DNA of 64,000 nucleotides from positions 2,354 to 66,353 of the forward strand of contig CAIQWC010000043.1 of the NCBI GenBank assembly GCA_903875425.1. The letters run 5' to 3'. Made by a program: the position numbers and the translations under genes. This document shows positions 1-51,186 of this stretch, piece after piece (the stretch's first letter is position 1; each line of letters opens with the position of its first letter). The stretch is from an uncultured Actinomycetes bacterium. Its GTDB lineage: Bacteria; Actinomycetota; Acidimicrobiia; Acidimicrobiales; RAAP-2. The notes beneath the pieces were generated by a model. The model made no database searches and was not told the DNA's origin. It worked only from the letters and a program-made list of their open reading frames with translations.

Positions 1-1085
1 CGAAGGCCAGTGGCTACCTTCAAGAGTCGGGAATTATTGGAGAAGTTCTGATTGCCGATAACGGGAGCACGGACGGCAGCCAAGAAATCGCTCGCTCGCT
101 AGGCGCGCGTGTGGTCGAGGTTCCCTCTCGGGGCTACGGCAATGCACTCATCGCCGGGATTAACGCCGCTGAGAGTGAGTTCATCGTTATGGGCGATGCT
201 GATGATTCCTACGATTTTTCAAACCTCGACTCCTACATGGCCGCGTTGCGCTCAGGAAGCGACCTCGTAATGGGGAATCGCTTCAAGGGAGGAATCGCTC
301 CTGGAGCCATGCCGATCCTGCACCGTTACCTCGGCAATCCTGTGCTGTCGTTCATCGGACGATTATTTTTTAAGTCCAAGATTGGTGATTTTCACTGCGG
401 TCTAAGAGGCTTTCGTAGAGAATCAATTCGGGATCTGAGTCTCCACTCTGGGGGGATGGAGTTTGCTAGCGAAATGGTCGTCAAGGCCGAGCTGTCGTCA
501 CTCAAGATCATGGAGGTCCCTACTACCTTGCGCCAAGACGGTCGTAGCCGCCCCCCTCACCTCCGAACGTGGAGGGATGGATGGCGCCACCTTCGGTTCT
601 TACTGCTCTATAGCCCTCGATGGTTATTTTTCTACCCAGGCTTATTTTTAATTTTCACCTCATTGCTTGGTGGCATCTTGATTGAAACCGACAAACTGAC
701 GCTTGGTAACGCGCGATTCGGCATAGATAGCTTGGCAGTGGACGCAGCGCTCCTGATTATTGGCGTCCAAGCAGTCTTGTTTTCAGTGCTCACGCACGTC
801 TACGGAGAGCAAGCAGGATTTCTCCCACCCACAAAACGAGTTCATTCGTTTCGATCCGTATTCTCGCTGGAGTCAGGAGTTGGCATTGGTTCGGGACTCA
901 CCCTTATTGGTTTCGCACTCTTGGTTACGGCCTTCGTTGTTTGGCAGCACGCTGGATTTAGTTCACTCAACGTGGTTAGCCAGATGCATCTTGTGATTCC
1001 AGCCGTGACGTTGCTGGTGCTCGGTGTGCAGATCGCACTCTCGAGCACGTTCATGGGGATCTTGCTCATCAAACATCATGATTGA
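1..1085 (+). CDS. Family 2 glycosyltransferase (polyprenyl-phosphate sugar synthase-like) with C-terminal transmembrane helices; 5' end lies outside the window
   Basis: Frame 3 is open from base 3 (KASGYLQESGIIGEVLIADNGSTDGSQEIARSLGARVVEV) and runs into track ORF 111..1085. GT2 hallmarks are ADNGSTDGS, MGDADDSYD (DxD) and GDFHCGLRGF. The last ~140 aa form about four hydrophobic helices. Confidence 0.8.
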   Translation, partial: KASGYLQESGIIGEVLIADNGSTDGSQEIARSLGARVVEVPSRGYGNALIAGINAAESEFIVMGDADDSYDFSNLDSYMAALRSGSDLVMGNRFKGGIAPGAMPILHRYLGNPVLSFIGRLFFKSKIGDFHCGLRGFRRESIRDLSLHSGGMEFASEMVVKAELSSLKIMEVPTTLRQDGRSRPPHLRTWRDGWRHLRFLLLYSPRWLFFYPGLFLIFTSLLGGILIETDKLTLGNARFGIDSLAVDAALLIIGVQAVLFSVLTHVYGEQAGFLPPTKRVHSFRSVFSLESGVGIGSGLTLIGFALLVTAFVVWQHAGFSSLNVVSQMHLVIPAVTLLVLGVQIALSSTFMGILLIKHHD

Positions 1086-2745
1086 ACAACCCGGATCTCA
1101 CCTCGAAGCACGGCGCCTGACCCGACGCGAGATCCAGGCCGGGCTTGGGAGCGATCTATCGGCGCCGGGAAAGTTGGCAGCATCGGCTGGGAGGCCTCAG
1201 ATGCTTCGCTTCGAAGTCGTTGATTTTTTGATCATCGAGATTGCCGCCATCGTGCTGCGAACGTGGATGTGGGCGACCGAAGCTGGTGTTTGGTATTTCC
1301 CAGACTCAAACATCTACATCTACGCGCATCAGTTTCCCGTTTACGCGTCGTCTCGTCCTGGCGCTATTTCAACGCTGTGGTACGACGTCACTTTTGGCGT
1401 CTTTGATGCTCGCGCGTTGGTGGTGGCGCAGTTCATTGCCGGCCTTATCGCGGTCGCGATGATCTACGATCTGCTACGAAGGCTTGTTCATCGCTACGCA
1501 GCGCTAGCGGGTGGATTGATCTTTGCTCTGTTTCCGATGGTCGCTATTTATGAGCGTACGGTGATGGCCGAAGCTTTTGCGCTTGATTTCCTCGTCGCTG
1601 GGTTTTGGACGCTCGCCGTGAGTTTTATGGCCCGATCATGGTGGATCCGACTCCCCGCGATAATTCTTGCTTTGGGATCGTTTGGAGTCGCCGCGGTGCT
1701 TCGATCCGCACTAGTCATACCGACCATTGCGGTAATTGTCGTCGGAAGTGTGGTCTGGTTAGTCAGAGAGCAAGGTCGACGGCTGCAACCCTTAGTAGTA
1801 GGACGAAGCCTTGCCGCCCTGGTACTAGGCGGACTTTTATTCGCAGCGCCCCTGGAAGCACAAATGAACACGGCACAAACTTCAGTGGGTCTGCATACTC
1901 TTAACCCGTTGACCGGATCTTTTCTCGCTGCTCGATGGACCAAGATCATCCCCTGCACTTCCGAGAAGGCTACCTTGCGACTGGTTAAGCGCAGCTTGAA
2001 ACAACTCTGTCGCGATAAGCGATTCACCGAACAAGTACCCGGGTATTCGATGAACTTGGTTTGGTACGCGAAAACGCCTATTGGTAAGACCGTATTTGTT
2101 AATCATCACTTCGCACAAACCCAGCAAGAACTTCAGGCCATTGCCATGAAAGCCATCGAACAGCATCCTGGCTTCGTAGCATCGAGTATGGCAGCGGTAG
2201 TAGCGAACGAACTTTTTTCCACCCCGTACCTTGATGCAGTTGATTACAACAACGGATATAAACTCTTTGCTTACTCCTCCTACCGACATCATCCAGCGGT
2301 GTTGAAGGAGTTCCTGCAGGTCAATGTCAAACCAGCGAAAGGCACTAACCGTCTCTTACAGTCAATGGCGATTTCTACTGCACGTTGGCCCCAATATTTA
2401 TTCTGGGTAGTTCTCGCTGGATTGCTGGTCCGAAGTGCATGGTGGCTGCAAGGTGTTCTCAGAAGGACGCGACACACGGTCACGAGAGATCCAGAGCAGA
2501 GTGCTTATCTCTGGGGACGGTGGGCAATGGTGTTAGCTGCGTGGATCTTTTTGTTTGCGTATGTTCTCGGTATCGCATTTAGCGCATTTGCCGTCTTTCG
2601 CTACAACCTGATGCTTCTACCCTCACTGATGATTTTGCTTACCTGCGTATGGACGAGACCGGTAGTCCTGAACGCTGGGGAGCACCATGGGGACGACCGA
2701 AGCGATTCGCATAATTCAGTGCATCGAGTGGCGAACAGTAGTTGA
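1078..2745 (+). CDS. Polytopic membrane protein, possibly a GT-C-type glycosyltransferase (function uncertain)
   Basis: Track ORF 1024..2745. The in-frame ATG at 1078 overlaps the upstream stop (ATGATTGA). It has many hydrophobic segments, a ~170-aa soluble loop and C-terminal helices. The functional guess rests only on topology and the adjacent GT2. Confidence 0.5.
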   Translation: MIEQPGSHLEARRLTRREIQAGLGSDLSAPGKLAASAGRPQMLRFEVVDFLIIEIAAIVLRTWMWATEAGVWYFPDSNIYIYAHQFPVYASSRPGAISTLWYDVTFGVFDARALVVAQFIAGLIAVAMIYDLLRRLVHRYAALAGGLIFALFPMVAIYERTVMAEAFALDFLVAGFWTLAVSFMARSWWIRLPAIILALGSFGVAAVLRSALVIPTIAVIVVGSVVWLVREQGRRLQPLVVGRSLAALVLGGLLFAAPLEAQMNTAQTSVGLHTLNPLTGSFLAARWTKIIPCTSEKATLRLVKRSLKQLCRDKRFTEQVPGYSMNLVWYAKTPIGKTVFVNHHFAQTQQELQAIAMKAIEQHPGFVASSMAAVVANELFSTPYLDAVDYNNGYKLFAYSSYRHHPAVLKEFLQVNVKPAKGTNRLLQSMAISTARWPQYLFWVVLAGLLVRSAWWLQGVLRRTRHTVTRDPEQSAYLWGRWAMVLAAWIFLFAYVLGIAFSAFAVFRYNLMLLPSLMILLTCVWTRPVVLNAGEHHGDDRSDSHNSVHRVANSS

Positions 2746-3202: not shown

Positions 3203-4668
3203 CCGAAGATACTGCCTTGCAGGAATTAGACACGGCCCTTCTTGGTCATAGCGATGCTTGGTACCGCCGCACTGACCCCTTTGGGTTGGTCGCCTTCATC
3301 CTCGGATCCATTCCCGGTTTCTTTGTCGTTGGTAATTTTGGCTTTGCCGACGATTACGGCCAAATGTCACTCACTCAGCAACAGATACTTGGCTGGGCAA
3401 AGTCCATGGTGGGTTGTGGACGGCCCGTGCAGTTAGTGGCCCTCGCGATTTGGAAATGCTTCCCCTCGATTAGCGATCTATGGGGTTATCACGTCGTCGC
3501 TGCGCTTGTCGGTGGCCTCTGCGCGTGGACACTCTACGCATTTATTCGCAGTCTTGGGAGAAGCGCTGCGAGTTCGCTCTTTATTGGTCTTGGTTCCTTG
3601 TGTTTAGTCCCCGGTTTCTTAATCCAAATTGCCTGGCTTCAGATGTTCCCGTTTTTACTCGCGTCTGTGGCAAGCATCACCGGAGCGCGATGGCTCATCG
3701 AGGCAAAGCATCGGCCGTGGATTTCAGGACTACTCTTCGCCCTAGCGTGGCTTTGCTATCAGCCTTCAGCGCTCATCGGTATCATCCTGATCGCCGCCAC
3801 CCCTTTTCTCGCCATGAGCGATGTGGCCATGAACTCATGGCGGCAGTTGTGGTGGAGACGCTTAGTGCAAGCCTCGATACCGCTAGCCGTCGCCGGGATA
3901 GCCTCCGTGATCATGGTGAAGATTGCTGTTGCGGCCCACTGGGCCAAGGCGGGCGGTCGCCATCAGTTCTTGGGCAATGTATCGGGCCACATCCATGCAT
4001 GGCTCCATAACCAGTTGCCGATGACCTTTCGACTCTGGAGCCCCTTTGGTCTTTCGCACCGGGTTCTTGTAATCGAATTAATCTTCGGGCTGATAACCGT
4101 AGGGGTGGCACTTCGTCGCCGGCGAGTGCTTGAATCTGTGATTGCTGTTTTGTTCATGGGAGCGGGTAGCTATCTTCTCGCCTTTGCGACTGCCGCCTTT
4201 GACGCAGATGCTCGAGCTCTTGTTGCGTCACAGGTGGCGGTGGCGCTCATGGCGTTGACTGGTATGGCGCTGACGGTTGAATGGGCTCTCGCGCGATGGA
4301 GATCGCTCAGTGTGGCACTGCTCGTGGCCATGAGTGTGCTCCTGAGCGTGCACGCAAGCATGCTGTTGCGTAATGACTACGCCAGGCCCAACAAGGTTGA
4401 ACTCCACCTCATTAGCCAAGCATTGAACTCCAAAAAGTGCAGGAATCTCGACTACATCGTGCTTGCTCATTCGCCGACGTCAGCACTGGGTCCCGCTGAA
4501 GCAAATGAGTTTGGTTCACCGACGACGAAGGCTCCGTGGATGTCACAGAAATTAGTTCAATTGGTCTGTGCTGCGGCAGGAGTTCCCCACCTTGCGCTTC
4601 CGCACGTGGTGAACAGTGTTACTCAACCAGCTCGGACGCTCGATTTCAACACTTTGCTCAATCCTTGA
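3199..4668 (+). CDS. Polytopic membrane protein, GT-C/GtrII-like putative glycosyltransferase (function uncertain)
   Basis: Track ORF 3136..4668. The in-frame ATG at 3199 forms an ATGA overlap with the VOC gene stop. It has more than 10 hydrophobic helices and an acidic FGFADDYGQ motif in the first predicted loop, as seen in GT-C enzymes. Confidence 0.5.
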   Translation: MTEDTALQELDTALLGHSDAWYRRTDPFGLVAFILGSIPGFFVVGNFGFADDYGQMSLTQQQILGWAKSMVGCGRPVQLVALAIWKCFPSISDLWGYHVVAALVGGLCAWTLYAFIRSLGRSAASSLFIGLGSLCLVPGFLIQIAWLQMFPFLLASVASITGARWLIEAKHRPWISGLLFALAWLCYQPSALIGIILIAATPFLAMSDVAMNSWRQLWWRRLVQASIPLAVAGIASVIMVKIAVAAHWAKAGGRHQFLGNVSGHIHAWLHNQLPMTFRLWSPFGLSHRVLVIELIFGLITVGVALRRRRVLESVIAVLFMGAGSYLLAFATAAFDADARALVASQVAVALMALTGMALTVEWALARWRSLSVALLVAMSVLLSVHASMLLRNDYARPNKVELHLISQALNSKKCRNLDYIVLAHSPTSALGPAEANEFGSPTTKAPWMSQKLVQLVCAAAGVPHLALPHVVNSVTQPARTLDFNTLLNP

Positions 4669-17892: not shown

Positions 17893-18486
17893 TCAGCGTA
17901 CGAAAATCGCGACCAGGCTGTAGATGCCGAATCCCGCCAAGATCACGCCACCACCTTTGCGAATGGCGGAAAGGGGCAAAACACGCAACAGGGCGCGACC
18001 CGAGAGTGCGGCAATGCCCGAGATGGCAATCAGGGCACAGCTCCCAGCGATGAATACGGTGAGAATATCGTGGCTCTTGGCTACGAAGTTAATGACGAGC
18101 AATTGAGTCAGGTCGCCAAATTCGCCAATGAAAATAACGAGAAATGCGGAACCGGCGACCCGCAAAAAGCTACCCAGGCTCTCGTGGTCAGCAGCTTCTT
18201 CACCCCTTTCCTCCTCGTGTTTCTCAGGAATGAAGAGGAGGTAGAACGCTCCTCCCAAAAAGAGCACCGTCTCAAAAATCAAGACGACGCGATGGGGTAG
18301 GAGCAAGATGAGTCTGCCGGCTACGCAACTCAAGGCCACTTGCGCTACAAAGGCTGAGCCAGCGCCTAGCCATACTGCTCGAGAGTTGGACCGTGACCCC
18401 ATGACCAGGGTGGCGATCATGGTCTTATCTGGCAGCTCCGCTACGAAGAGAACGGCAAAGACCGTACCGAAGAGGGCGAGGTTCAC
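17893..18486 (-). CDS. GDT1/TMEM165 (UPF0016) family cation (Mn2+/Ca2+) transporter
   Basis: Two copies of the family signature E-x-G-D-[KR]-[TS]: AELPDKTMIAT and GEFGDLTQLLV. Six hydrophobic helices. The GTG start overlaps the pepN stop (GTGA, 18483-18486). Confidence 0.7.
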   Translation of the reverse strand: MNLALFGTVFAVLFVAELPDKTMIATLVMGSRSNSRAVWLGAGSAFVAQVALSCVAGRLILLLPHRVVLIFETVLFLGGAFYLLFIPEKHEEERGEEAADHESLGSFLRVAGSAFLVIFIGEFGDLTQLLVINFVAKSHDILTVFIAGSCALIAISGIAALSGRALLRVLPLSAIRKGGGVILAGFGIYSLVAIFVR

Positions 18487-22176: not shown

Positions 22177-23076
22177 CTACTCAGTTTCGTTAGCGGCGCG
22201 CTGGGCATCCAAGATCGCATCAATCTCGCGAGCCTTCTCCTCTTCCGATTTCATCCAGGTGTAGGCGACGGGCCCCATGGCGATGAGCATCAAGAAGTCA
22301 CCACCTATCCACATAAGCGCCCCGCCAGTATGAAGATCGCTAAGGATGCTCGGCCCCCAGGTTCGCTGCATCTCAGCGAGCGCTGGCACCGTATTGTGAC
22401 CACTCATAGCCAACGCGAGGCCGGTGAAGGTGTCGACGGGTACTGCTAGGGCCAAGAAGACTAAGCGCTGCCCTGGGCCAAGAGGGTGGCGCATGGGTTC
22501 GATACCCACGACCGGCCTCCAGAACAAGTAGCCCACGATTAAGAATCCAAGTTGCTCAGCGTGGTGTACCCACAGGTGTTCCATCATCACGTTCAATAAT
22601 CCGGTGAGATGGGTAACAGGGATAAAGACTGCGTAGCAAGCAAACCCAACTATGGGGCGACCGAGGAACTCTCCAACCTTCGATGAGGCGAGGTGATTGA
22701 CGAATTTGCCAAGTATCCCTGGACACGCTTCGAGGAATAACTGTAAGGGTGCACCCATTGCAAAGAGTGCTGATGAGAGCATGATTAATAAGAGGTGTTG
22801 GATCATGTGGTCGCTAAAGAGCGTCATGTCATAGGTGCCAATTGCTGACTGCGTTGCAAACAAGACACACAGCAGCGCCACGATGGTGATGACGGAGCGC
22901 TTGAGGCTCCAAGCCTTACCCGTGAGGGTCTCCCAGCGCTTGGCTAAGGCGAAGTACGTAATTGCGTAGAGCACCATCAAGAGGATGGGGACCCACGCTA
23001 CACTGACTTCGAGGGCCGTTTTCCAACTCAGGGGTGCTGGAATTGGCATGGCATCCATGGCCAAGATCAAGGACAT
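22177..23076 (-). CDS. Cytochrome c oxidase assembly protein (Caa3_CtaG family membrane protein)
   Basis: Polytopic, with the HMIQHLLLIMLSSALFAMGAP motif typical of Caa3-type CtaG. The track ORF extends to 23178. An internal ATG (23076/23058/23049) is more likely, so the start is uncertain. Confidence 0.6.
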   Translation of the reverse strand: MSLILAMDAMPIPAPLSWKTALEVSVAWVPILLMVLYAITYFALAKRWETLTGKAWSLKRSVITIVALLCVLFATQSAIGTYDMTLFSDHMIQHLLLIMLSSALFAMGAPLQLFLEACPGILGKFVNHLASSKVGEFLGRPIVGFACYAVFIPVTHLTGLLNVMMEHLWVHHAEQLGFLIVGYLFWRPVVGIEPMRHPLGPGQRLVFLALAVPVDTFTGLALAMSGHNTVPALAEMQRTWGPSILSDLHTGGALMWIGGDFLMLIAMGPVAYTWMKSEEEKAREIDAILDAQRAANETE

Positions 23077-23136
23077 GCCTTGAACGCTACAAGGCCAACC
23101 CCTACCCACCAATTCGCTAGGTAGGCTGAGAGTCTG

Positions 23137-23508
23137 ATGAGTAGCAAGTGGTTCTCCGGTCGCGCCCTGCGCATACACGTACTTTCTTTACTTTGGATTG
23201 CTCTGTGTGCGGGTGCAGCCTGGTGGCAGATTTCTCGGGCGGTGGGGGGAAATGCCTTGTCTTGGGTTTATGCCATCGAGTGGCCCGTTTTTGCCGGTGC
23301 GGGAATTTACGTCTGGTGGCATCTACTCAACACAGCTCCCGTTACAGCGCAAGAGCGCGAGGAGCGTCGGGTACTTGAAGAAGAACTACGAGCACAAGCA
23401 CAGGCATCGAAACGACGCCCCGAAGATGAAGACGATGCCTTGCGTGCTTATAACGACCACCTAGCCACCTTGGCCGATAATGATCGATCACAAAAGGAAC
23501 AGCCATGA
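23137..23508 (+). CDS. Hypothetical small membrane protein (two TM helices, charged C-terminal tail)
   Basis: The ORF has two hydrophobic helices (VLSLLWIALCAGAAWW, WPVFAGAGIYVWW) and an ATGA overlap with the downstream DUF3817 gene. No family was recognised. Confidence 0.4.
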   Translation: MSSKWFSGRALRIHVLSLLWIALCAGAAWWQISRAVGGNALSWVYAIEWPVFAGAGIYVWWHLLNTAPVTAQEREERRVLEEELRAQAQASKRRPEDEDDALRAYNDHLATLADNDRSQKEQP

Positions 23509-29817: not shown

Positions 29818-29919
29818 CTACTTACCTGCTGCGCGACGCTGCCAGCGAGTGGCCTTCAGCATCTTCTTGTGCTTCTTCTTGCGCATGCGCTTGCGGCGCT
29901 TCTTGATTAGCGATCCCAT
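29818..29919 (-). CDS. 30S ribosomal protein bS22 (33 aa; too short for the ORF track)
   Basis: The reverse strand reads MGSLIKKRRKRMRKKKHKKMLKATRWQRRAAGK, nearly the MGS[VL]IKKRRKRM.KKKH[KR]K.L signature I recall for mycobacterial bS22. An AAGGTGG SD lies 7 nt upstream. Confidence 0.7.
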   Translation of the reverse strand: MGSLIKKRRKRMRKKKHKKMLKATRWQRRAAGK

Positions 29920-29938: not shown

Positions 29939-30184
29939 CTAGCGCCGGGTAGAGCCAACCCGGCGGTTGGCCTCAACGGCGCTGGCCTTAATGGAAAGCG
30001 CCTGGCGGGGGCATTGCCGCACGGCCATTTCGGCGTGAGCCTTGGCGGCACCAGAGACGGCGCCTCGAATAATGGGGTAGCCCCAAGGGTCAAGAGCGAT
30101 GATTTCAGGTGCGATCTCAGCACAGTGGCCGTAGGCGTCGCACTTAATGGGGTCCACGATGAGGGTGAGGAGTCGCTTGGCCAT
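29939..30184 (-). CDS. Small ferredoxin (single [3Fe-4S]/[4Fe-4S] cluster type)
   Basis: VDPIKCDAYGHCAEIAPE ... AVRQCPRQAL, which is the C-x5-C ... CP pattern of actinobacterial Fdx-type ferredoxins. Confidence 0.65.
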   Translation of the reverse strand: MAKRLLTLIVDPIKCDAYGHCAEIAPEIIALDPWGYPIIRGAVSGAAKAHAEMAVRQCPRQALSIKASAVEANRRVGSTRR

Positions 30185-31449
30185 TAGAAAAGATCCTCCT
30201 GATCGGGTAGGTGTAGATAGGTTTTCGAGCCCACCCGGCCACAGGTACGTGCTTGCTGGTGGGTGGCAAGATCGTCAGCAAAGACCTCAAGCGCAGTACG
30301 TACCATGCGGATGACGCCATCGGGGTGAGCGCAGGCACCGCGCCCCTCGAGCACGTCGGTGAGGTCCAAGATCGATCGGTCAGCCCTAGCACTGTGGCGA
30401 CCCGACGCCAAGGCTTCGAGCTGATCTGCCATGTTGGGTAACCCGAACAAGCAAGGTCCGCACTGCCCGGCTGATTCATTGGCCATCCAGCGAGTAATTC
30501 GAGCTGTTTCGACCAAAGGACAGACGTCGTCGCCGAGGGCGATAATGATGCCCGCGCCGAGGTTGCCTCCAAAAGGTGCCACGCCCGCTACTGAATAGGG
30601 CGCGTCGAGTGCTGCAGCTGATACCCAAGTTCCGCCATAGCCACCGAGCAACAGACCCGATATCGCTCCTTGTGGGTTCGCCAATTGTACGATGTCGGCC
30701 ACCGTAGTACCGAGAGCAATTTCGAAGACGCCAGGGGTTTGGACCGCTCCCGAAACGGTTACCAACGTGGTCTCGGGGGCATGAGCGATGTCCCCCTTTG
30801 CCCACCACGCGCCACCATGTCGAGCAATTAAGGCAACATTGGCACAGGTCTCGGCGTTATCCACAAGGAGAACCCGACTCTTAGCGATCACGGGAGAAGG
30901 CCGAGTAGTGCGGAAGCGAGGTAGGGATACTCCCTCGTCGAGGTAGTGGCCCAGTGCAGTCTCTTCTGAGGCCACGTAGCGACCTTGGGGACGCTCGATC
31001 TCCATGCTGCGTTCTTTGAGACCCCGCCGATCGTTAATGGCTCGCTCCATCAACTGAGCGACACGATCGTTATCATTGGCGATGCAAACCACAACGCGGT
31101 CAGCGTTAATGATGGCGGCAAGCACCTGTGCTCCGTCCAAAATTAGGTGGGGGGCAAAGGTGGCCAGTACCGAGTCCTTTTGACTTGCCGGCTCGCTTTC
31201 CATCAAATTAACTACCATGCGTGCTCGTCGGCGTTGACTGGCTACGTAGGCAACTTTCGTGGCGGTAGGGAAACGACCGCCGCCCCTTCCATCCAAGCCA
31301 GCGGTGGCGAGCTCAGCGAGCATGGCCTCGCTCCATGATGCGTTCGCTTGAGTTGAAGGTACCGCCAGGGTCCCATGGACCTCAAGGTGCTGGGACAAGG
31401 TCAGGGGGCTGGTTGGATTCACTCCTTCCAAGAGTCGATTACCGCTCAT
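30184..31449 (-). CDS. NuoF-like flavoprotein (Complex1_51K / NADH-quinone oxidoreductase-F Fe-S region family)
   Basis: GRGGGRFPTATK (compare GGAGFPTG), VVNLMESEPASQKD (compare CNADEGEPGTFKD), GRYVASEETAL, DNAETCANV and ESAGQCGPCLFG...GACAHPDG (a variant N3 cluster motif whose first Cys is Ala). Confidence 0.7.
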   Translation of the reverse strand: MSGNRLLEGVNPTSPLTLSQHLEVHGTLAVPSTQANASWSEAMLAELATAGLDGRGGGRFPTATKVAYVASQRRRARMVVNLMESEPASQKDSVLATFAPHLILDGAQVLAAIINADRVVVCIANDNDRVAQLMERAINDRRGLKERSMEIERPQGRYVASEETALGHYLDEGVSLPRFRTTRPSPVIAKSRVLLVDNAETCANVALIARHGGAWWAKGDIAHAPETTLVTVSGAVQTPGVFEIALGTTVADIVQLANPQGAISGLLLGGYGGTWVSAAALDAPYSVAGVAPFGGNLGAGIIIALGDDVCPLVETARITRWMANESAGQCGPCLFGLPNMADQLEALASGRHSARADRSILDLTDVLEGRGACAHPDGVIRMVRTALEVFADDLATHQQARTCGRVGSKTYLHLPDQEDLF

Positions 31450-32105
31450 CGCGAGCCTCGCCGTGCCGGCTTAGTTTGGTGATTCTTATTCCGAAGTGAG
31501 CTCACGTGCTCGGCCGCGGCACGGCGATTAAGCATCGTGCTCCCCGGTCCAGTTTTGCCTAATCCGTGGCGTCGCGGTGATTGCCAGATTCGCCACAGTA
31601 GCGACACGCCAACGACGCCTACGCAGATAATGACGAAGAGTTCCATCCACGCAAAACGCATGTCGGTACCAATCATGATGGTGTGAATAACGGCGATGGC
31701 AAAGGATAGGAATGACAGCCAATGGACGAAGCGCCAAGACTCAAACGACATCTTTGCGCGGAGCAAGCTCGTGGCGATGATGGCGATGATGAGGTCTAAG
31801 GCGATGGTACCGAGCGCCACCTTGAGGGGTTTGTACTGCGAGGTAAAGGGAATGACGGCAGAGGCGAGACTGATGTTGACGTAGGAGTCAAGGACTGAGC
31901 CGAGGATGTGAACGACGATGAAAACCACACTGAGCAGGGAGATGCGACGGTGGATCTCCGCAATTGCGAAGCGAGGGACGATACCGTTTCCAATTCGGGT
32001 TGAGGTCGAGATGCCCAGCACCATCACGATCGTTAAGAGTAGGAGTGACACGATACCCGTAGCGCGGGAGGAGTACCAGAGGTAATGCGAGTTCAACGCA
32101 ATCAC
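31446..32105 (-). CDS. Ferric-reductase-like (MsrQ/FRD-type) di-haem transmembrane protein
   Basis: Six hydrophobic helices with two pairs of TM histidines (AEIHRRISLLSVVFIVVHILGS; RFVHWLSFLSFAIAVIHTIMIG). The spacing matches bis-His ligation of two b haems. Confidence 0.7.
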   Translation of the reverse strand: MIALNSHYLWYSSRATGIVSLLLLTIVMVLGISTSTRIGNGIVPRFAIAEIHRRISLLSVVFIVVHILGSVLDSYVNISLASAVIPFTSQYKPLKVALGTIALDLIIAIIATSLLRAKMSFESWRFVHWLSFLSFAIAVIHTIMIGTDMRFAWMELFVIICVGVVGVSLLWRIWQSPRRHGLGKTGPGSTMLNRRAAAEHVSSLRNKNHQTKPARRGSR

Positions 32106-33043
32106 GATCCATCGTCTCCTCTGGGTTCAGCCCAACCACCCACTCGTTCTATAGATCCATCATGTCGCACGAGGCGTGCTTGAGCAGACCGTTGGGCCAA
32201 TTCAAAGATGGCGTCCTCGCCCCAGATGATTGCGGCAGTGCTGAGGGCATTTGCTTCCAGAGTTGTTGGCGCGACCACACTCACTAGGGTCCAAGGCGTT
32301 AGTGCGCTTGCGCCCGTTCGGGGATCAATGATGTGGTGGACTCTTTGGCCTGACCGCTGCCAGCTGCGCACCATGGAGGACGAACTCGCCACCCCGCCCA
32401 TGCTTAGGCTCACGATTTCTGTGATCTCAGCGGCTGCGAGGCCATGTTTAGCGCTCGCGGCGATACCAATAGGCCAACCTCCTGCCGGGGCCGGGCCCGC
32501 AATCCTAAGATCACCGCCAAGATCGACAAGGACGCCACAGCCAAGCTCCGCGGCGATTGCTGTGGCGCTGGCATCGGCCGCGACGGCCTTGGCACTTGCG
32601 CCAAGGTCTATGGTGACCCCCTCGGCCAAGGTGACGAGATGGTCATCGATACCGATTGCCGACCAACCTGGTGCTGGCATCGTCGCTGGAGCAGCGTCGT
32701 CGGTCGCGACTATGGCGTCAAAGTCCCGGTCGTAACCGAGCGCCACGAGGGCACCGAGCACCGTAGGGTCACAGAGCCCATCAGTGAGCTCGTAACCATG
32801 TCTGGCCTGAACCAAGAGTTCCAAAAACCAAGGAGAAGCGCTGAGGGTTCCGGCTGCATTGAGTTGAGAGATCTCGCTATTGGTATCGAAGCGGCTCGCA
32901 GATTTGCTGGTGGCTTCGAGAACGACATCAAGTAACTGTCGCGCTCTGGGGAGTGCCGTACTGTCGGAAGTCGCGATCGCGGCGCTGGTGCCCCAGATGG
33001 AGAAGTGTTCGATTCCCAGGCTGCTGAGCGACGAATCGCTCAC
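32102..33043 (-). CDS. apbE: FAD:protein FMN transferase (ApbE family)
   Basis: SRFDTNSEISQLN, CDPTVLGALVALGYDRDF, DLGASAKAVAAD and VASSSSMVRSW are consistent with ApbE. The GTG start overlaps the upstream stop (GTGA). Confidence 0.75.
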   Translation of the reverse strand: MSDSSLSSLGIEHFSIWGTSAAIATSDSTALPRARQLLDVVLEATSKSASRFDTNSEISQLNAAGTLSASPWFLELLVQARHGYELTDGLCDPTVLGALVALGYDRDFDAIVATDDAAPATMPAPGWSAIGIDDHLVTLAEGVTIDLGASAKAVAADASATAIAAELGCGVLVDLGGDLRIAGPAPAGGWPIGIAASAKHGLAAAEITEIVSLSMGGVASSSSMVRSWQRSGQRVHHIIDPRTGASALTPWTLVSVVAPTTLEANALSTAAIIWGEDAIFELAQRSAQARLVRHDGSIERVGGWAEPRGDDGS

Positions 33044-33477
33044 GAGCCGCCAGTGACGACGACGGGTGCAGGAGCAGGAGCAGGGACCGTCGTAGGAACT
33101 GTTGCCGGAGTGGGTGCAGGAGCTGGGGTCGTGGCTTGGGCAGGCGCAGGAGCTGGCGTCGTGCCCCCGGTCCCCGTTGAACCCGATGGAGCTGGAGTCG
33201 TGCCCCCGGTCCCCGTTGAACCCGATGGAGCTGGAGTCGTGCCCCCGGTCCCCGTTGAACCCGATGGAGCTGGAGTCGTGCCCCCGGTCCCCGTTGAACC
33301 CGATAGCCCGCTCGCACCCTGGCTTGCTGACGCGGAGGTGCTTGAGGTGTTAGCGGTCTTTCCGGCGTAGGCATTCCCGACGAACACGGTCATGAAGCCC
33401 ACCAGGGCAATACTGCCCAGGGTTGCCACCGTGGATGTCGCCTTGATGACTGCATTGCCGTTGATTCGAGATTGCAT
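33040..33477 (-). CDS. Secreted low-complexity Thr/Gly/Pro-rich protein with 4 x 13-aa tandem repeats
   Basis: ATG 33477 lies behind a GAGGA SD. The signal-peptide-like N-terminus is MQSRINGNAVIKATSTVATLGSIALVGFMTVFVGNAYA|GK. Then come (PSGSTGTGGTTPA)x4 and a PAPA/TVP tail. Its stop overlaps the apbE start. The track ORF begins at GTG 33516. Confidence 0.6.
   Translation of the reverse strand: MQSRINGNAVIKATSTVATLGSIALVGFMTVFVGNAYAGKTANTSSTSASASQGASGLSGSTGTGGTTPAPSGSTGTGGTTPAPSGSTGTGGTTPAPSGSTGTGGTTPAPAPAQATTPAPAPTPATVPTTVPAPAPAPVVVTGGS
33149..33304. repeat. Tandem repeat, 4 x 39 nt (in-frame, coding)
   Basis: The units 33149-33187, 33188-33226, 33227-33265 and 33266-33304 read GGAGCTGGAGTCGTGCCCCCGGTCCCCGTTGAACCCGAT. 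Units 2-4 are identical and unit 1 differs at one base (33157). Confidence 0.95.
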
Positions 33478-33544
33478 GGTTTCCTCTTTCGGTTCCCTCC
33501 CAGTATCAGTGGTCACTGTAAGGAAACAATGGGGAATATCTAAG

Positions 33545-33610: not shown

Positions 33611-34171
33611 TTAGTCGTCGGAATTACCACCGTGGCCCTCATATGAGGGACTTTGATTTCCAGTCTCGGAATTACCACCGTGGCCCTCATATGAGGGACT
33701 TTGATTTCCAGTCTCGGAACTGCTCTCTGACCCGGTGCTAGAGGATCCCGCTGATTCAGCCGAATTTTGCCCTCCGATACCGCCTTCGACCTTGTTCCCA
33801 GCGTCGTCGCTTCCTTGGGCCGCACTTATATTTGCAGTGGGCGTTGCGCTAGGGGTCTGCTGCGTTTTTGCGATCGCAGCCAGTGGGACATTCCTTGGGG
33901 TGCTCGAAGGAGTCGCCGTCGTGGCTATCGAGCTCGGAACCTTGGCTGGCGTACCAGCACGTGGGCTCTGAATGGACGACGGTGTGCTGCCTGGGGCGGT
34001 ACTCGGCGCCGCACTCGGCGCGGGGGATGTTGTCGCAGCCACTCCTGCCTGCTTGGCGGTGTTGACCTGCCCGGCTAGGACTACCATGACGCCAGCGAGC
34101 ACCACGGCAGCGATGACGGTGGTTGAGGCCGCGGCCTTGCCAACGAGTTTTTTCTTTGAGTAAGCGCCCAT
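33611..34171 (-). CDS. Membrane-anchored, intrinsically disordered Ser/Thr/Ala/Pro-rich protein with C-terminal 2 x 16-aa His-containing repeats
   Basis: A strong SD (AGGAGG) lies 4 nt before ATG 34171. The N-terminus is KKKLVGKAAASTTVIAAVVLAGVMVVLAG (anchor/signal). The remainder is low complexity and ends with (SETGNQSPSYEGHGGN)x2 SDD. Confidence 0.55.
   Translation of the reverse strand: MGAYSKKKLVGKAAASTTVIAAVVLAGVMVVLAGQVNTAKQAGVAATTSPAPSAAPSTAPGSTPSSIQSPRAGTPAKVPSSIATTATPSSTPRNVPLAAIAKTQQTPSATPTANISAAQGSDDAGNKVEGGIGGQNSAESAGSSSTGSESSSETGNQSPSYEGHGGNSETGNQSPSYEGHGGNSDD
33620..33715. repeat. Tandem repeat, 2 x 48 nt, identical (in-frame, coding)
   Basis: 33620-33667 and 33668-33715 are identical (GGAATTACCACCGTGGCCCTCATATGAGGGACTTTGATTTCCAGTCTC). 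The first 4 nt of a third unit follow. Confidence 0.95.
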
Positions 34172-34272: not shown

Positions 34273-35619
34273 CTAGGAAATGGTGGGCAAGGTCATGCGC
34301 AGGTGGGCGCCACCACCGGGAACATTGAATGCCTCAATGGATCCGTTTTCGTCCTCGACGACCTCAGCGACGATCGAGAGGCCCAGCCCTGAACCCGGCA
34401 GTGCACGCGCCTCGTCTGATCGGTAGAAGCGGTCGAAGATTCTAGTGAGATCCGTTTCTTTGATACCCGGTCCTTGGTCGATAACGTCCAACACACCATG
34501 TGACAAGGTGACGCGGACGGTTGCGTTATCAGGTGAGAACTTAAGGGCATTGGAAAACAAGTTGGAGATCGCGCGGTGAACACGGTCTCGGTGAATAAAC
34601 ACTTTGGTCGGCTCTAGGTCAGCGTCGAAGGAGATCCCTCGTGCTCGGCCATGGGCGTTAAAGACGTCGACGAGCAACTGAACCATTTCATCGAGATCTT
34701 CCGAGGTCAATATCGAATCTGTCTTGCCCGATCTAGCCAGTTCCGTGATGTCTCCGAGCAGACTGGTCATTTCATCGACCTGCGTCATCACGTCATTGAG
34801 GAGCTGGCGGCGATCATCTTCGCTCAGGCGATCGAACTGTTGGAGCACCTGGGCGTTGGTGCGCATCGACGTCAGTGGTGTACGTAGTTCGTGGCTGGCA
34901 TCGAGGACAAGCTGGCGTTGTTGGATTTGACTTCGGTCAAGTGCCGCGAGCATACGGTTGAAGCTACGTCGGAGACTACCGAGTTCGTCTTTGCCACCCT
35001 CTTCGAGCCGCTGGGTGACGTCAGTGGTTTCCGCTAGTACCTCTATGCCTTCGGTCACATCATTGAGCGGCCGGATAACGAGTCGAGCAACCAGCCAACC
35101 GAAGAAGGCGGCCAGTAAGGTGCCGAGAATTGCGACTCCAAGAAGGGCAATTTCTAAGCGACGGAGCTGATGATCGATGCCGTTGAGCGGTACGGCTAGT
35201 TGCATGACGCCTGTAGTCGTGAGTTGCATACCCTCTTGCTCTTGGTTGATCATTTGCCCAGCGGGTAATGGGATAAGCAGTTCTCGATAGTAAGCACCGT
35301 GGATGGTAACGGTGACATAGACCTCATCGCGGAGGCCATCAGCTACTGATTTAGTAACGGGACCAACGGGGAGTCTGCCAAACGGTGATGACGTCACAAC
35401 GGCGCCACTGGCATCAGCTACTTGGAAGATGGCACCGCCGAGCCCATCAGTGTTGATCTCCGTGGCGCGAGTGATCTGCGTGGCCAATGCCGAGAGAGAA
35501 TCGTCAGCCGACGATACGAGTGAGTTGCGTGCGACGTACCAGGCTCCCGCGCAGGCCACAATCACGGCAAAGGCAACCGCCAGAGAGGTGGCAACAATAA
35601 TTCGGAGTCGAAACGTCAC
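34273..35619 (-). CDS. Sensor histidine kinase (two TM segments, HAMP, HisKA, HATPase_c)
   Basis: H-box [12 protein letters not shown]-box [14 protein letters not shown]1 DQGPGI and G2 GSGLGLSIV. It overlaps the response-regulator stop. Confidence 0.85.
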
Positions 35620-36290
35620 GACTCGCGCAGTGAGTAGCCGATGCCGCGGACTGTCTGGATAAGACGTGCGTCACCGTTATCTTCGAGTTTGCGGCGAAGG
35701 TAGCCCACGTATACAGCGAGCGAATTAGTACCTGAATCAAAGTCGTATCCCCAGACACGATCAAGAATCTGTTCACGGGTCAGTACCTGCCGCGGGTTCT
35801 CTAAGAACATTTCAAGGAGATCGAATTCGATTTTGGTAAGCGGAAATGATCGATCGCCCCGCTTGGCTTCGCGGGTGGCCACATCTAAGGATAAGTCCTC
35901 AAAGCGAAGAAGCTCAGCGCTGGCGCCGGCCATGCGACGGCGGAGTAACGCACGCAGTCGAGCGAAGAGCTCGGCTAGGTCAAAAGGCTTGGGCATGTAG
36001 TCGTCTGCTCCCGCATCGAGCCCCTCAACGCGATCGTCAACGGCGCCTCGGGCGGTCAGCATCAACACGGGTGTCATATCGCCGAGAGAACGTAAGCGGC
36101 GACAAACCTCAAGGCCGTCGATGTCGGGCATTTGGAGGTCAAGAATGACGGCATCAGGCGCTCGCTGACTCAAGATGCGTAAGGCCTCGGTGCCGTTAGC
36201 TGCGAGGTCGACCTCATAGCCCTCGAGAACGAGGGCGCGTCGCAGAGAATCTCGAACTGCTTGGTCATCATCAACGACGAGAATGTTCAC
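35616..36290 (-). CDS. OmpR/PhoB-family response regulator
   Basis: Receiver domain [16 protein letters not shown]...[11 protein letters not shown]...LTARG. Winged-helix output [33 protein letters not shown]. Confidence 0.9.
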
Positions 36291-36430: not shown

Positions 36431-36503
36431 TCGCGGGTAGTTCAATTGGCAGAACAACGGACTTTGAATCCGTACGTTGGAGGTTCGAGTCCTCCCCCGC
36501 GAG
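36431..36503 (+). tRNA. tRNA-Gln (anticodon UUG)
   Basis: Cloverleaf folded by hand. Acceptor TCGCGGG/CCCGCGA (U1-A72), D arm GTTC-AATTGGCA-GAAC, anticodon arm ACGGA-CTTTGAA-TCCGT, T arm GGAGG-TTCGAGT-CCTCC, discriminator G. No encoded CCA. Confidence 0.9.
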
Positions 36504-36549
36504 CGTTTTGTTCCCGGATCTCGTTGGCCACCGGGGGAGAGGTGCATCA

Positions 36550-51083: not shown

Positions 51084-51156
51084 GGGGGCGTAGCCCAATG
51101 GCAGAGGCAGGGCGCTTAAACCGCCTCCAGTGAGGGTTCGAGTCCCTTCGCCCCCA
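51084..51156 (+). tRNA. Atypical tRNA with anticodon UAA (nominally Leu) but class-I shape (5-nt variable loop)
   Basis: Folded by hand. Acceptor GGGGGCG/CGCCCCC, discriminator A, D stem GCC/GGC (3 bp, C13/A22 mismatch), anticodon arm GGGCG-CTTAAAC-CGCCT, variable CCAGT, T arm GAGGG-TTCGAGT-CCCTT. 73 nt, no encoded CCA. Confidence 0.65.
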
Positions 51157-51186
51157 CTAAATAGTCAATTTCAGGCCCATTACGGC

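Follow-up and report, generated by a model that had tools for sequence, protein, structure and literature searches.

To my knowledge, the flavin transferase ApbE is known to attach flavin mononucleotide (FMN) to folded domains only (FMN_bind, NqrB/RnfD, DUF2271 and DUF3570; Flavodoxin_4 and FMN_red have been proposed as well). The clue to DUF2271 and DUF3570 as substrates was an orphan apbE beside a gene with a conserved motif. The closest described systems to the one treated here are the MsrQ-like flavinylation clusters, which are broadly conserved in Actinobacteria, have a NuoF-like partner in 31 clusters, and for which NAD(P)H was proposed as the cytosolic electron donor (Meheust 2021, PMC8238504). 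Here I describe an operon in a 64,000-nucleotide (nt) stretch of DNA from an uncultured Actinomycetes bacterium (the window, to which all window coordinates refer). Its five minus-strand open reading frames (ORFs) encode a small anchored protein (ORF A), an ApbE-like enzyme, an MsrQ-like cytochrome b, a NuoF-like flavoprotein and a small ferredoxin (Table 1). The type of electron-export module is not new, because MsrQ-like/ApbE clusters with a NuoF-like partner have been published (Meheust 2021, PMC8238504), and the electron-export reading is reasonable and the standard one for clusters of this kind. What is new is that the supposed filler in the operon, ORF A, forms a conserved family that bears an ApbE-like tag at its terminus and goes together with a signal-less ApbE of an Asn265 type.

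The ApbE motif, D-x-x-[ST]-G-A-[ST], is short: 7 residues suffice, a tag works best at a terminus, changing Asp to Ala has a minor effect, and changing Gly to Ala or Ala to Val leaves ~50% flavinylation (PMC12052999). In the E. coli cytosol, a signal-less ApbE achieved full flavinylation of a 12-residue tag placed at the C-terminus (PMC9400968), and motif-bearing unstructured C-terminal extensions were proposed for FMN_red proteins encoded near apbE (PMC11334425). No description of a domain-less, tethered natural ApbE substrate, or of ORF A, was found in the literature. The survey of Meheust 2021 dropped ApbE and FMN_bind genes without a predicted signal peptide, a filter that probably excluded most of the present family. 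In the reading I favour, which I give about an even chance of being right, the operon would encode an NAD(P)H-fed two-haem transmembrane (TM) electron-transfer module with its flavin on the C-terminus of ORF A. ORF A is read as an ApbE substrate by the logic that was used for DUF2271 and DUF3570, namely an orphan apbE with a neighbouring conserved motif.

A conserved operon and the search for a flavinylation target

The five ORFs are chained at 29939-33477, a block that extends to 33516 if the longest ORF is taken for ORF A. The ORF A stop and the GTG start of apbE lie in GTGA at 33040-33043 (a 4-nt overlap), the ApbE stop and the GTG start of the MsrQ-like gene in GTGA at 32102-32105, the MsrQ-like/NuoF-like junction is ATGA at 31446-31449, and the NuoF-like and ferredoxin genes meet in TAATG and share base 30184. 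An earlier note on this DNA had described such a chain of start/stop overlaps, and its coordinates and junctions were confirmed.

The NuoF-like protein belongs to a large family with the signature ESAGQCGPC. In a pattern scan with one genome per GTDB species, a relative is encoded by at least 596 matches, out of 600 among the matches listed. Synteny was counted on the best 80 species-level loci of the matches listed, which come from Acidimicrobiia, Solirubrobacterales, Gaiellales, Streptosporangiaceae, Catenuloplanes and Actinocatenispora. Among the carriers, Actinocatenispora rupis NBRC 107355 and Catenuloplanes sp. have been cultured. The order ApbE-MsrQ-NuoF-ferredoxin on a single strand was kept in 72/80 of these Actinomycetota loci, which is more than a chance association. 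The apbE gene itself was retained in 72 and ORF A in about 70 of them, and in nearly all of the loci the NuoF-like gene is immediately followed by the ferredoxin gene. Neighbourhood tables of metagenome contigs showed this core again, in most cases beside a two-component system of the OmpR type. The five genes are a real conserved operon, and its core order is family-wide.

A Pfam scan assigned the ApbE, Ferric_reduct, Complex1_51K and NADH_4Fe-4S families to the operon. FMN_bind gave no match at E<=1 in the five operon proteins, a neighbouring 186-aa protein, the histidine kinase and the response regulator, and none in NCBIfam, in agreement with the claim of the earlier note that no such fold is encoded in or beside the operon. 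The Pfam scan of 20 further window proteins returned no Nqr, Rnf, FMN_bind, DUF2271 or DUF3570, so that there is no nqr or rnf system among the scanned proteins of the window to claim the ApbE, and profile searches detected no known flavinylation-target domain in the operon ORFs, the ORF A homologues or the scanned window proteins. The pattern D..[ST]GA[ST] in a plausible reading frame was absent from the flanks of all 88 loci, and no conserved [ST]GA[ST]-type motif was found in the NuoF-like, MsrQ-like and ferredoxin families. A hidden FMN_bind domain or other target was therefore rejected, as Pfam, NCBIfam and motif scans of the window and the 88 loci were all negative. The implication of the earlier note that the acceptor's slot is filled by a protein that could not be the acceptor is probably wrong in view of the conserved family and its ApbE-like C-terminal motif.

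ORF A and its C-terminal motif

ORF A lies outside the recognised substrate families, and no Pfam domain was found in it or its homologues. Its hydropathy scan showed an N-terminal hydrophobic anchor, TSTVATLGSIALVGFMTVFVGNA (33370..33438, minus strand, about residues 14-36), followed by AYAGKT. In the homologues, a basic N-terminal motif (consensus RD..a.R[VI]RR.T) is followed by a single hydrophobic helix, often with a PG motif after it, then by a linker rich in Thr, Ser, Ala, Pro and Gly (47-172 residues, median 74) and a conserved extreme C-terminus. Across the family, the 25 residues that precede the helix include 3-9 Lys and Arg, with few beyond the helix, and these basic residues N-terminal of the helix therefore predict an N-in/C-out topology. 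The same architecture was seen in about 70 loci, with the gene directly upstream of apbE in most, and the family is spread over Acidimicrobiia, Thermoleophilia and Actinomycetes. The description of ORF A in the earlier note as a purely low-complexity secreted protein had to be given up, since its N-terminal motif, TM helix and C-terminal motif are all conserved.

ORF A ends in ...APVVVTGGS, and the family consensus of the C-terminus is [PA][TSV][VTA][TV][ST]G[GQA][ST] plus 0-3 residues. Among 71 distinct homologues, [ST]-G-[GAQ]-[ST] occurred within the last 8 residues in 56, while 2000 rounds of composition-preserving shuffles gave 1.8 +/- 1.3 and a maximum of 8; its internal frequency in the homologues was 0.6%. 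All four Gly codons occur at both Gly positions of the motif, and this synonymous variation argues for selection at the protein level. Aligned with D-x-x-[ST]-G-A-[ST], the window terminus V-V-V-T-G-G-S matches at both hydroxyl positions and at the Gly, with Gly in place of Ala and the Asp absent. Canonical SGA[ST] termini were found in four of the 56 (SGATS at locus L071; SGAS at L073, L022 and L087), the terminus of a paralogue at L007/L008 contains TGAS, and that at L059 is D-x-x-S-G-G-S. Within the window, ORF A is the sole ORF of at least 70 codons that ends in the motif, and it is encoded beside its cognate apbE, with a 4-nt overlap here and an upstream position in most loci.

The motif is kept where ORF A precedes MsrQ (L022, L045, L053, L079, L087), where it comes after the ferredoxin (L061, L076), and in a paralogue upstream of the response regulator. 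The possibility that terminal SGG[ST] is a by-product of the apbE Shine-Dalgarno/start overlap was rejected because the motif persists in these three settings and because all four Gly codons are used.

Outside the 56, 13/71 homologues carry a Cys-flanked variant, C..[ST][PA]SG...C., and 2/71 are near-misses. The Cys-flanked termini (L015-L017, L021, L023-L025, L028-L032 and L044; e.g. TTTCYTTPSGTVTCL) replace SGG[ST]. Their loop could form a disulfide, and a different chemistry is possible for those members that have no Ser/Thr after SG.

Each 13-residue unit encoded by the tandem repeat of ORF A holds TGGT and SGST, which repeat the flavinylation-like pattern internally. In metagenome loci of the same species as the window (among L089-L096, of which seven loci were read), the copy number was 1, 3, 5 or 7 among strains with a 100% identical ApbE, compared with 4 in the window; the repeat was in frame in all seven loci and the termini were identical. 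Repeat variation with constant termini is what one would expect of a spacer with functionally important ends. It is also among the observations, together with the conserved N-terminal motif, TM helix and terminus, that rule out ORF A as a spurious ORF in GC-rich DNA; the GC content by codon position was uninformative on whether ORF A is a real gene. I further considered that ORF A and ApbE might be one frameshifted or fused protein, which would give ApbE a signal anchor. This was rejected because the frames differ, the spacing from the ORF A stop to the ApbE start varies (with overlaps of up to about 40 nt), and the genes lie apart in several loci.

On the L089-L096 contigs, gene callers mostly omitted ORF A or called an ORF of 92-118 aa on the opposite strand, and had it correct in 1/8 contigs. 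The family is unannotated and largely absent from protein databases because the callers miss it. In a sister lineage, a further paralogue of the ORF A type is encoded upstream of the response regulator (L002 3314-3628; L007/L008 about 3278-3646). It combines a basic N-terminus and a TM helix with a tail of low complexity that ends in KTGGS (L002) or KTGAS (L007/L008). The two-component system of that lineage is thereby flanked by two ORF A-like genes, an arrangement with no equivalent in the window.

The electron-transfer proteins and the ApbE-like enzyme

The MsrQ-like protein matched PF01794 (Ferric_reduct) at 1.8e-9 and 38.1 bits, above the cut-off of 28, and the match begins at model position 1. 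Its H52, H66, H128 and H141 are invariant in 78/78 homologues and lie in two helices, which bears out the two TM His pairs proposed in the earlier note. The six helices proposed there give way to five predicted TM helices in an N-out/C-in arrangement, because the loop charges follow the positive-inside rule (Lys plus Arg of 2.9 in loop 1, 1.9 in loop 3 and 5.1 in the C-tail, and of 1.0 at the N-terminus, 1.2 in loop 2 and 0.6 in loop 4). The basic C-tail is predicted to be cytoplasmic, and I infer an inner haem between H52 and H128 and an outer haem between H66 and H141.

With respect to the definition of an MsrQ-like system (Meheust 2021), the operon has a PF01794 gene clustered with apbE (38.1 bits, cut-off 28, for PF01794 and 165 bits for PF02424) and, encoded by the gene that overlaps its downstream end, a cytosolic module for NAD(P)H binding (PF01512 and PF10589), and it has none of the recognised substrate domains (FMN_bind, DUF2271, DUF3570). 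It also has neither an MsrP/YedY partner, within the operon or its conserved neighbourhoods, nor, by prediction, the six TM helices of MsrQ/YedZ proper. This bears on the proposal that the cytochrome is a classical MsrQ-type donor to an MsrP-like reductase, or a NOX-like superoxide generator, with ApbE and ORF A incidental. Homologues are routinely annotated as the YedZ/MsrQ haem-binding subunit, and a cytosolic flavin reductase feeds E. coli MsrQ according to work cited in a passage of PMC8238504. I nevertheless consider this proposal quite improbable: no msrP/YedY-like or other reductase gene was found in the operon or its conserved neighbourhoods, and apbE and ORF A recur in so many of the 80 loci (72 and about 70, respectively) that they are not incidental.

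About one in eight homologues of the MsrQ-like protein is a long variant that adds a sixth TM helix and, at the C-terminus, a domain of ~115 residues (P0195, L035 4703-5974, L062, L079 and L084, among others), which the window protein lacks. AlphaFold2 confidently modelled this extra domain as an eight-strand beta structure with a predicted local distance difference test score (pLDDT) of 74-90. It belongs to no Pfam family and resembles no PDB entry significantly, streptavidin/calycin-like barrels being the best among the weak matches. By topology the domain would be outside, where it could be a docking site.

The NuoF-like protein has Complex1_51K (6.4e-27), SLBB (PF10531, 6.1e-7) and NADH_4Fe-4S (2e-16) domains, and its residues 33-396 align to Nqo1 of T. 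thermophilus (2fug_1, E=9.8e-38), with GRGGGRFPT, ESEPASQKD and SEETAL on the FMN/NADH motifs of Nqo1. It scored 177.7 bits against the NuoF equivalog TIGR01959, far under the cut-off of 558.65. Where Nqo1 has the N3 motif ESCGKCTPC, the NuoF-like protein has ESAGQCGPC, so that C330, C333 and C373 are kept and the first Cys is Ala327. It thus has neither the four-Cys N3 motif nor equivalog-level similarity to NuoF, and no nuoE or nuoG adjoins its gene. The earlier note had recorded the exchange of the first Cys correctly, but as an oddity of the window; in a 30-sequence family alignment, A327 is invariant, as are C310, C330, C333, C373, H375 and C403, and it is hence a family trait. The ferredoxin matched PF13459 (Fer4_15) at 4.6e-8. 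C15 and C21 are kept in 82/82 homologues, C58 in 81/82 (in a Cys-Pro pair near residue 57/58) and P59 in 82/82. Three conserved Cys are typical of 3Fe-4S-type single-cluster ferredoxins, and this set suggests a [3Fe-4S]-type cluster here.

In the favoured reading, the cytoplasmic NuoF-like protein, with FMN and one Fe-S cluster of an unusual ligand set, would oxidise NAD(P)H and reduce the three-Cys ferredoxin, which would feed the inner haem of the five-helix cytochrome, and the outer haem would reduce a flavin. That flavin would be borne by the C-terminal Ser/Thr of ORF A (...VVVTGGS-COOH) and not by an FMN_bind domain. Anchored beside the cytochrome by its N-terminal helix, ORF A would hold the flavin on a leash, a disordered linker of variable length, from which electrons would pass to an acceptor outside the cytoplasm, for instance Fe(III), O2 or quinone-like compounds. 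The signal-less ApbE would attach FMN from cytoplasmic flavin adenine dinucleotide (FAD) to the unfolded tail of ORF A before or during export. The wiring put forward in the earlier note, from NAD(P)H through FMN/Fe-S, ferredoxin and the haem b pair to the outside, is consistent with the domain content, with the invariance of the His residues and with the topology predicted, and it agrees with the published model for MsrQ-like flavinylation clusters (PMC8238504).

The ApbE-like enzyme is a clear member of its family by PF02424 (2.8e-48, 165 bits, model positions 3-258 of 266) and matches the solved structure 1vrm_A at E=7.1e-22. H237, S221 and K152 are invariant in 72/72 homologues, and HHIIDPRTG is conserved. 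By motif alignment and review, H237 and S221 correspond to the catalytic His and Ser (Vc His257 and Ser241) and K152 to the FAD-binding Lys. It starts 18 residues before the Pfam domain, and the in-frame space upstream of ApbE in relatives can be as little as 2 codons (L021, L029) or about 20 codons (L015, L016, L065, L087); the enzyme looks cytoplasmic. The lack of a signal peptide together with Asn265 may mark a distinct ApbE subfamily.

Several of these features weigh against ORF A as the flavin carrier. Neither a signal peptide nor a lipobox was found on ApbE in the window or anywhere in the family, so that a predicted cytoplasmic enzyme faces a predicted extracytoplasmic ORF A tail; I know of no precedent for flavinylation before export. 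In 71/72 of the family, Asn265 replaces the Asp of the A-D-A-L-S/A-T motif (the Mg site, Vc Asp285), which is Asp in the three solved ApbEs whose alignments were shown. This Asp belongs to the proposed catalytic/Mg site (PMC12052999), and the activity could differ because of its replacement. Most ORF A termini have Gly or Gln for the canonical Ala and no Asp, the Cys-flanked subgroup departs further, and L021, L029 and L032 within it have no Ser/Thr after SG. Finally, the genome was viewed through 64 kb, and another ApbE target may be encoded elsewhere.

The same features favour the main rival, an account that keeps the electron-transfer core and leaves ORF A unflavinylated, as a structural subunit, with ApbE acting in the cytoplasm. 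ApbE might then modify a target elsewhere or a motif-less site in the NuoF-like or MsrQ-like protein, or it might be a FAD-handling or FMN-loading factor. The helix of ORF A might, for example, stand in for the first TM helix of classical MsrQ, which would suit a core of five TM helices that begins at Pfam model position 1, while the linker would serve as a cell-wall spacer and the SGG[ST] end as a binding or processing epitope. The absence of an export signal in all loci, Asn265, the poor fit of the Cys-loop variants to the flavinylation motif and three loci (L053, L056, L063) that keep ORF A and its motif with no apbE within 6 kb all agree with this account, as do cytosolic ApbEs (PMC12052999), which are known with cytosolic substrates and are not known with exported ones. 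However, several members have an ORF A terminus identical to the ApbE motif and most have one close to it, translational coupling joins apbE to ORF A in the majority of loci, and the motif scans gave no other candidate, either in the three partner families or in the flanks of the 88 loci. A helper that splits FAD also seems unnecessary, as FMN would already be in the cytoplasm. I therefore regard a purely structural ORF A as rather unlikely.

The conflict of compartments would disappear if ORF A were flavinylated with its tail in the cytoplasm (N-out/C-in or uninserted), shuttling electrons from the NuoF-like protein or ferredoxin to the inner haem, with the outer haem reducing an external acceptor directly. 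All other soluble components are cytoplasmic, which suits this arrangement. It is nonetheless highly improbable, as the basic residues before the helix strongly predict N-in/C-out, and the ORF A linkers are uncharged and rich in Thr, Ser and Pro over 47-172 residues. Such linkers are typical of extracytoplasmic spacers. The extra TM helix of the long MsrQ-like variants moreover puts their beta-domain outside, suggesting an external partner site. A twin-arginine translocation (Tat) signal on ORF A was considered as another way to reconcile cytoplasmic flavinylation with an external tail. Twin Arg is found just before the helix in 43/64 ORF A homologues and is absent in the window's clade, and the idea was kept as a sub-hypothesis for other clades only.

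Returning to ORF A as a tethered flavin carrier, a broader proposal is tentative, and I lean towards doubting it. ORF A would represent a new class of ApbE substrate, a domain-less, anchored, disordered protein to which FMN would be added in the cytoplasm at the [ST]-G-[GAQ]-[ST] end and which would then be exported; the TGGT/SGST repeats of the window might also be modified, and the leash length would be tunable (1-7 repeats). Electrons would travel from the outer haem through the actinobacterial cell wall, on a haem-plus-tethered-flavin route for extracellular or assimilatory reduction that would be widespread in Actinomycetota (at least several hundred species) and a natural precedent for the engineered Flavin-tag. 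If true, a terminal peptide on a disordered tether would widen the ApbE substrate set and help to explain some of the remaining orphan apbE genes. Flavinylation would be separable from the compartment where the flavin works, raising the question of how an unfolded chain bearing a cofactor is exported. By record titles, many uncultured Acidimicrobiia, Thermoleophilia and Actinomycetes in metagenomes of peatland, permafrost and freshwater carry the operon, and it could mark unrecognised electron-export capacity because extracellular iron/humic reduction matters in such habitats. The ORF A family is invisible in standard annotations, and the hypothesis of a tethered flavin is directly testable.

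The two-component pair of the window adjoins the operon in relatives too and is a possible regulator of it. No FMN riboswitch or other RNA element was found upstream of the operon, the RNA scan of the window having returned two tRNAs only, and promoter and terminator scans of the locus gave signals at background level only. A 33-aa ORF lies 20 nt past the ferredoxin stop and is possibly co-transcribed with the operon. The 186-aa protein encoded between the sensor kinase and ORF A has strain variants of 170 or 186 aa and no ORF A-type terminus; it was ruled out as an ORF A paralogue, since the sequences show no detectable similarity. The longest glmU ORF (from 36376) is over-extended, because it runs across a tRNA-Gln gene between the response regulator and glmU. 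The flanking genes stand in a conserved actinobacterial order (tatD, rpf-like, ksgA, ispE ... glmU, prs, L25, pth, mfd, eno).

Table 1. Features of the operon and of the rest of the window.
Feature	Position	Strand	Details
ORF A	33040..33477	-	145 aa; ATG at 33477 preceded by AGAGGA; alternative longest start GTG at 33516
ORF A 39-nt tandem repeat	33149..33304	-	4.0 copies, 99% matches (Tandem Repeats Finder, TRF); encodes SGSTGTGGTTPAP
ORF A C-terminal motif	33043..33066	-	PVVVTGGS-COOH
ApbE-like FAD:protein FMN transferase	32102..33043	-	313 aa; PF02424
MsrQ-like (Ferric_reduct) cytochrome b	31446..32105	-	219 aa; PF01794
NuoF-like NAD(P)H-binding flavoprotein	30184..31449	-	421 aa; PF01512, PF10531, PF10589
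Small single-cluster ferredoxin	29939..30184	-	81 aa; PF13459 Fer4_15
Small basic protein, actinobacterial bS22/COX24_C type	29818-29919	-	33 aa, MGSLIKKRRKRMRKKKHKKMLKATRWQRRAAGK; PF08213 in close relative
TM-anchored low-complexity protein	33611-34171	-	186 aa
48-nt tandem repeat of the 186-aa protein	33613-33719	-	2.2 copies; encodes ETGNQSPSYEGHGGNS
HAMP/HisKA sensor kinase	34273-35619	-	Pfam; best NCBIfam match heavy-metal sensor kinase subfamily, under its cut-off
OmpR-type response regulator	35616-36290	-	Pfam
tRNA-Gln (ttg)	36431-36504	+	
tRNA-Leu (taa)	51084-51157	+	
PMT_2-type glycosyl/mannosyltransferase	1024-2745	+	
Cytochrome P450	9786-11066	-	
GDT1-family cation antiporter	17893-18486	-	
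CtaG caa3 assembly factor	22177-23178	-	

Comparison with known systems

Among natural systems, FMN_red proteins associated with ApbE (Huang/Meheust 2024, PMC11334425) resemble ORF A in that their motif lies on a disordered C-terminal tail, outside the FMN_bind fold. Their tail, however, is part of a folded flavoprotein that has a flavin pocket of its own, whereas ORF A has no folded domain, and a possible docking domain occurs only in the long MsrQ-like variants and not in the window. The Listeria FmnB/PplA/Ndh2/EetAB system shares with the proposed module a monoderm host and the ApbE-type flavinylation of a surface-tethered protein for outward electron transfer. It differs in that PplA is a lipoprotein with folded FMN_bind domains, FmnB is extracytosolic and needs exported FAD, and its electrons are drawn from the quinone pool, where the operon would use a haem protein supplied by a NuoF-like protein and a ferredoxin. 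Growth of Bifidobacterium under iron limitation has been linked both to apbE and to a ferric reductase that has an FMN-binding domain (PMC5449479), which is only loosely relevant.

Like E. coli MsrQ(YedZ)-Fre and the eukaryotic NOX, FRE and STEAP proteins, the operon encodes a bis-His di-haem core that would pass electrons through the membrane from an NAD(P)H flavoprotein of the cytosol. Unlike them, its core has five and not six predicted TM helices, its donor would be the NuoF-like protein with a ferredoxin instead of Fre or a fused FNR-like domain, and it has ApbE and ORF A in place of an MsrP partner.

The nearest parallel to the ORF A terminus is the engineered Flavin-tag (Tong, Fraaije; PMC12052999, PMC9400968), of which no natural counterpart was found described in the literature. 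Both are short, unstructured terminal peptides; in the Flavin-tag, [ST]-G-A-[ST] suffices for FMN attachment, and modification works in the cytoplasm with a signal-less ApbE, as proposed here for ORF A. The Flavin-tag is artificial (GVDGLSGATLTS) and has both Asp and Ala, in contrast to ORF A, which ends mostly in [TV][ST]GG[ST] or SGQ[ST] with no Asp.

As a whole, the operon comes closest to the mainly actinobacterial MsrQ-like flavinylation clusters (Meheust 2021, PMC8238504), in which apbE likewise adjoins the gene of a two-haem PF01794 membrane protein, NAD(P)H is bound by a cytosolic module (including the NuoF-like PF10589 partner of the 31 clusters), and electron flow from NAD(P)H to an extracytosolic flavin was proposed. 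The operon departs from these clusters in having no FMN_bind, DUF2271 or DUF3570 substrate gene, an ApbE with no signal peptide and an extra single-cluster ferredoxin, and its substrate slot is occupied by a disordered protein with a short terminal motif.

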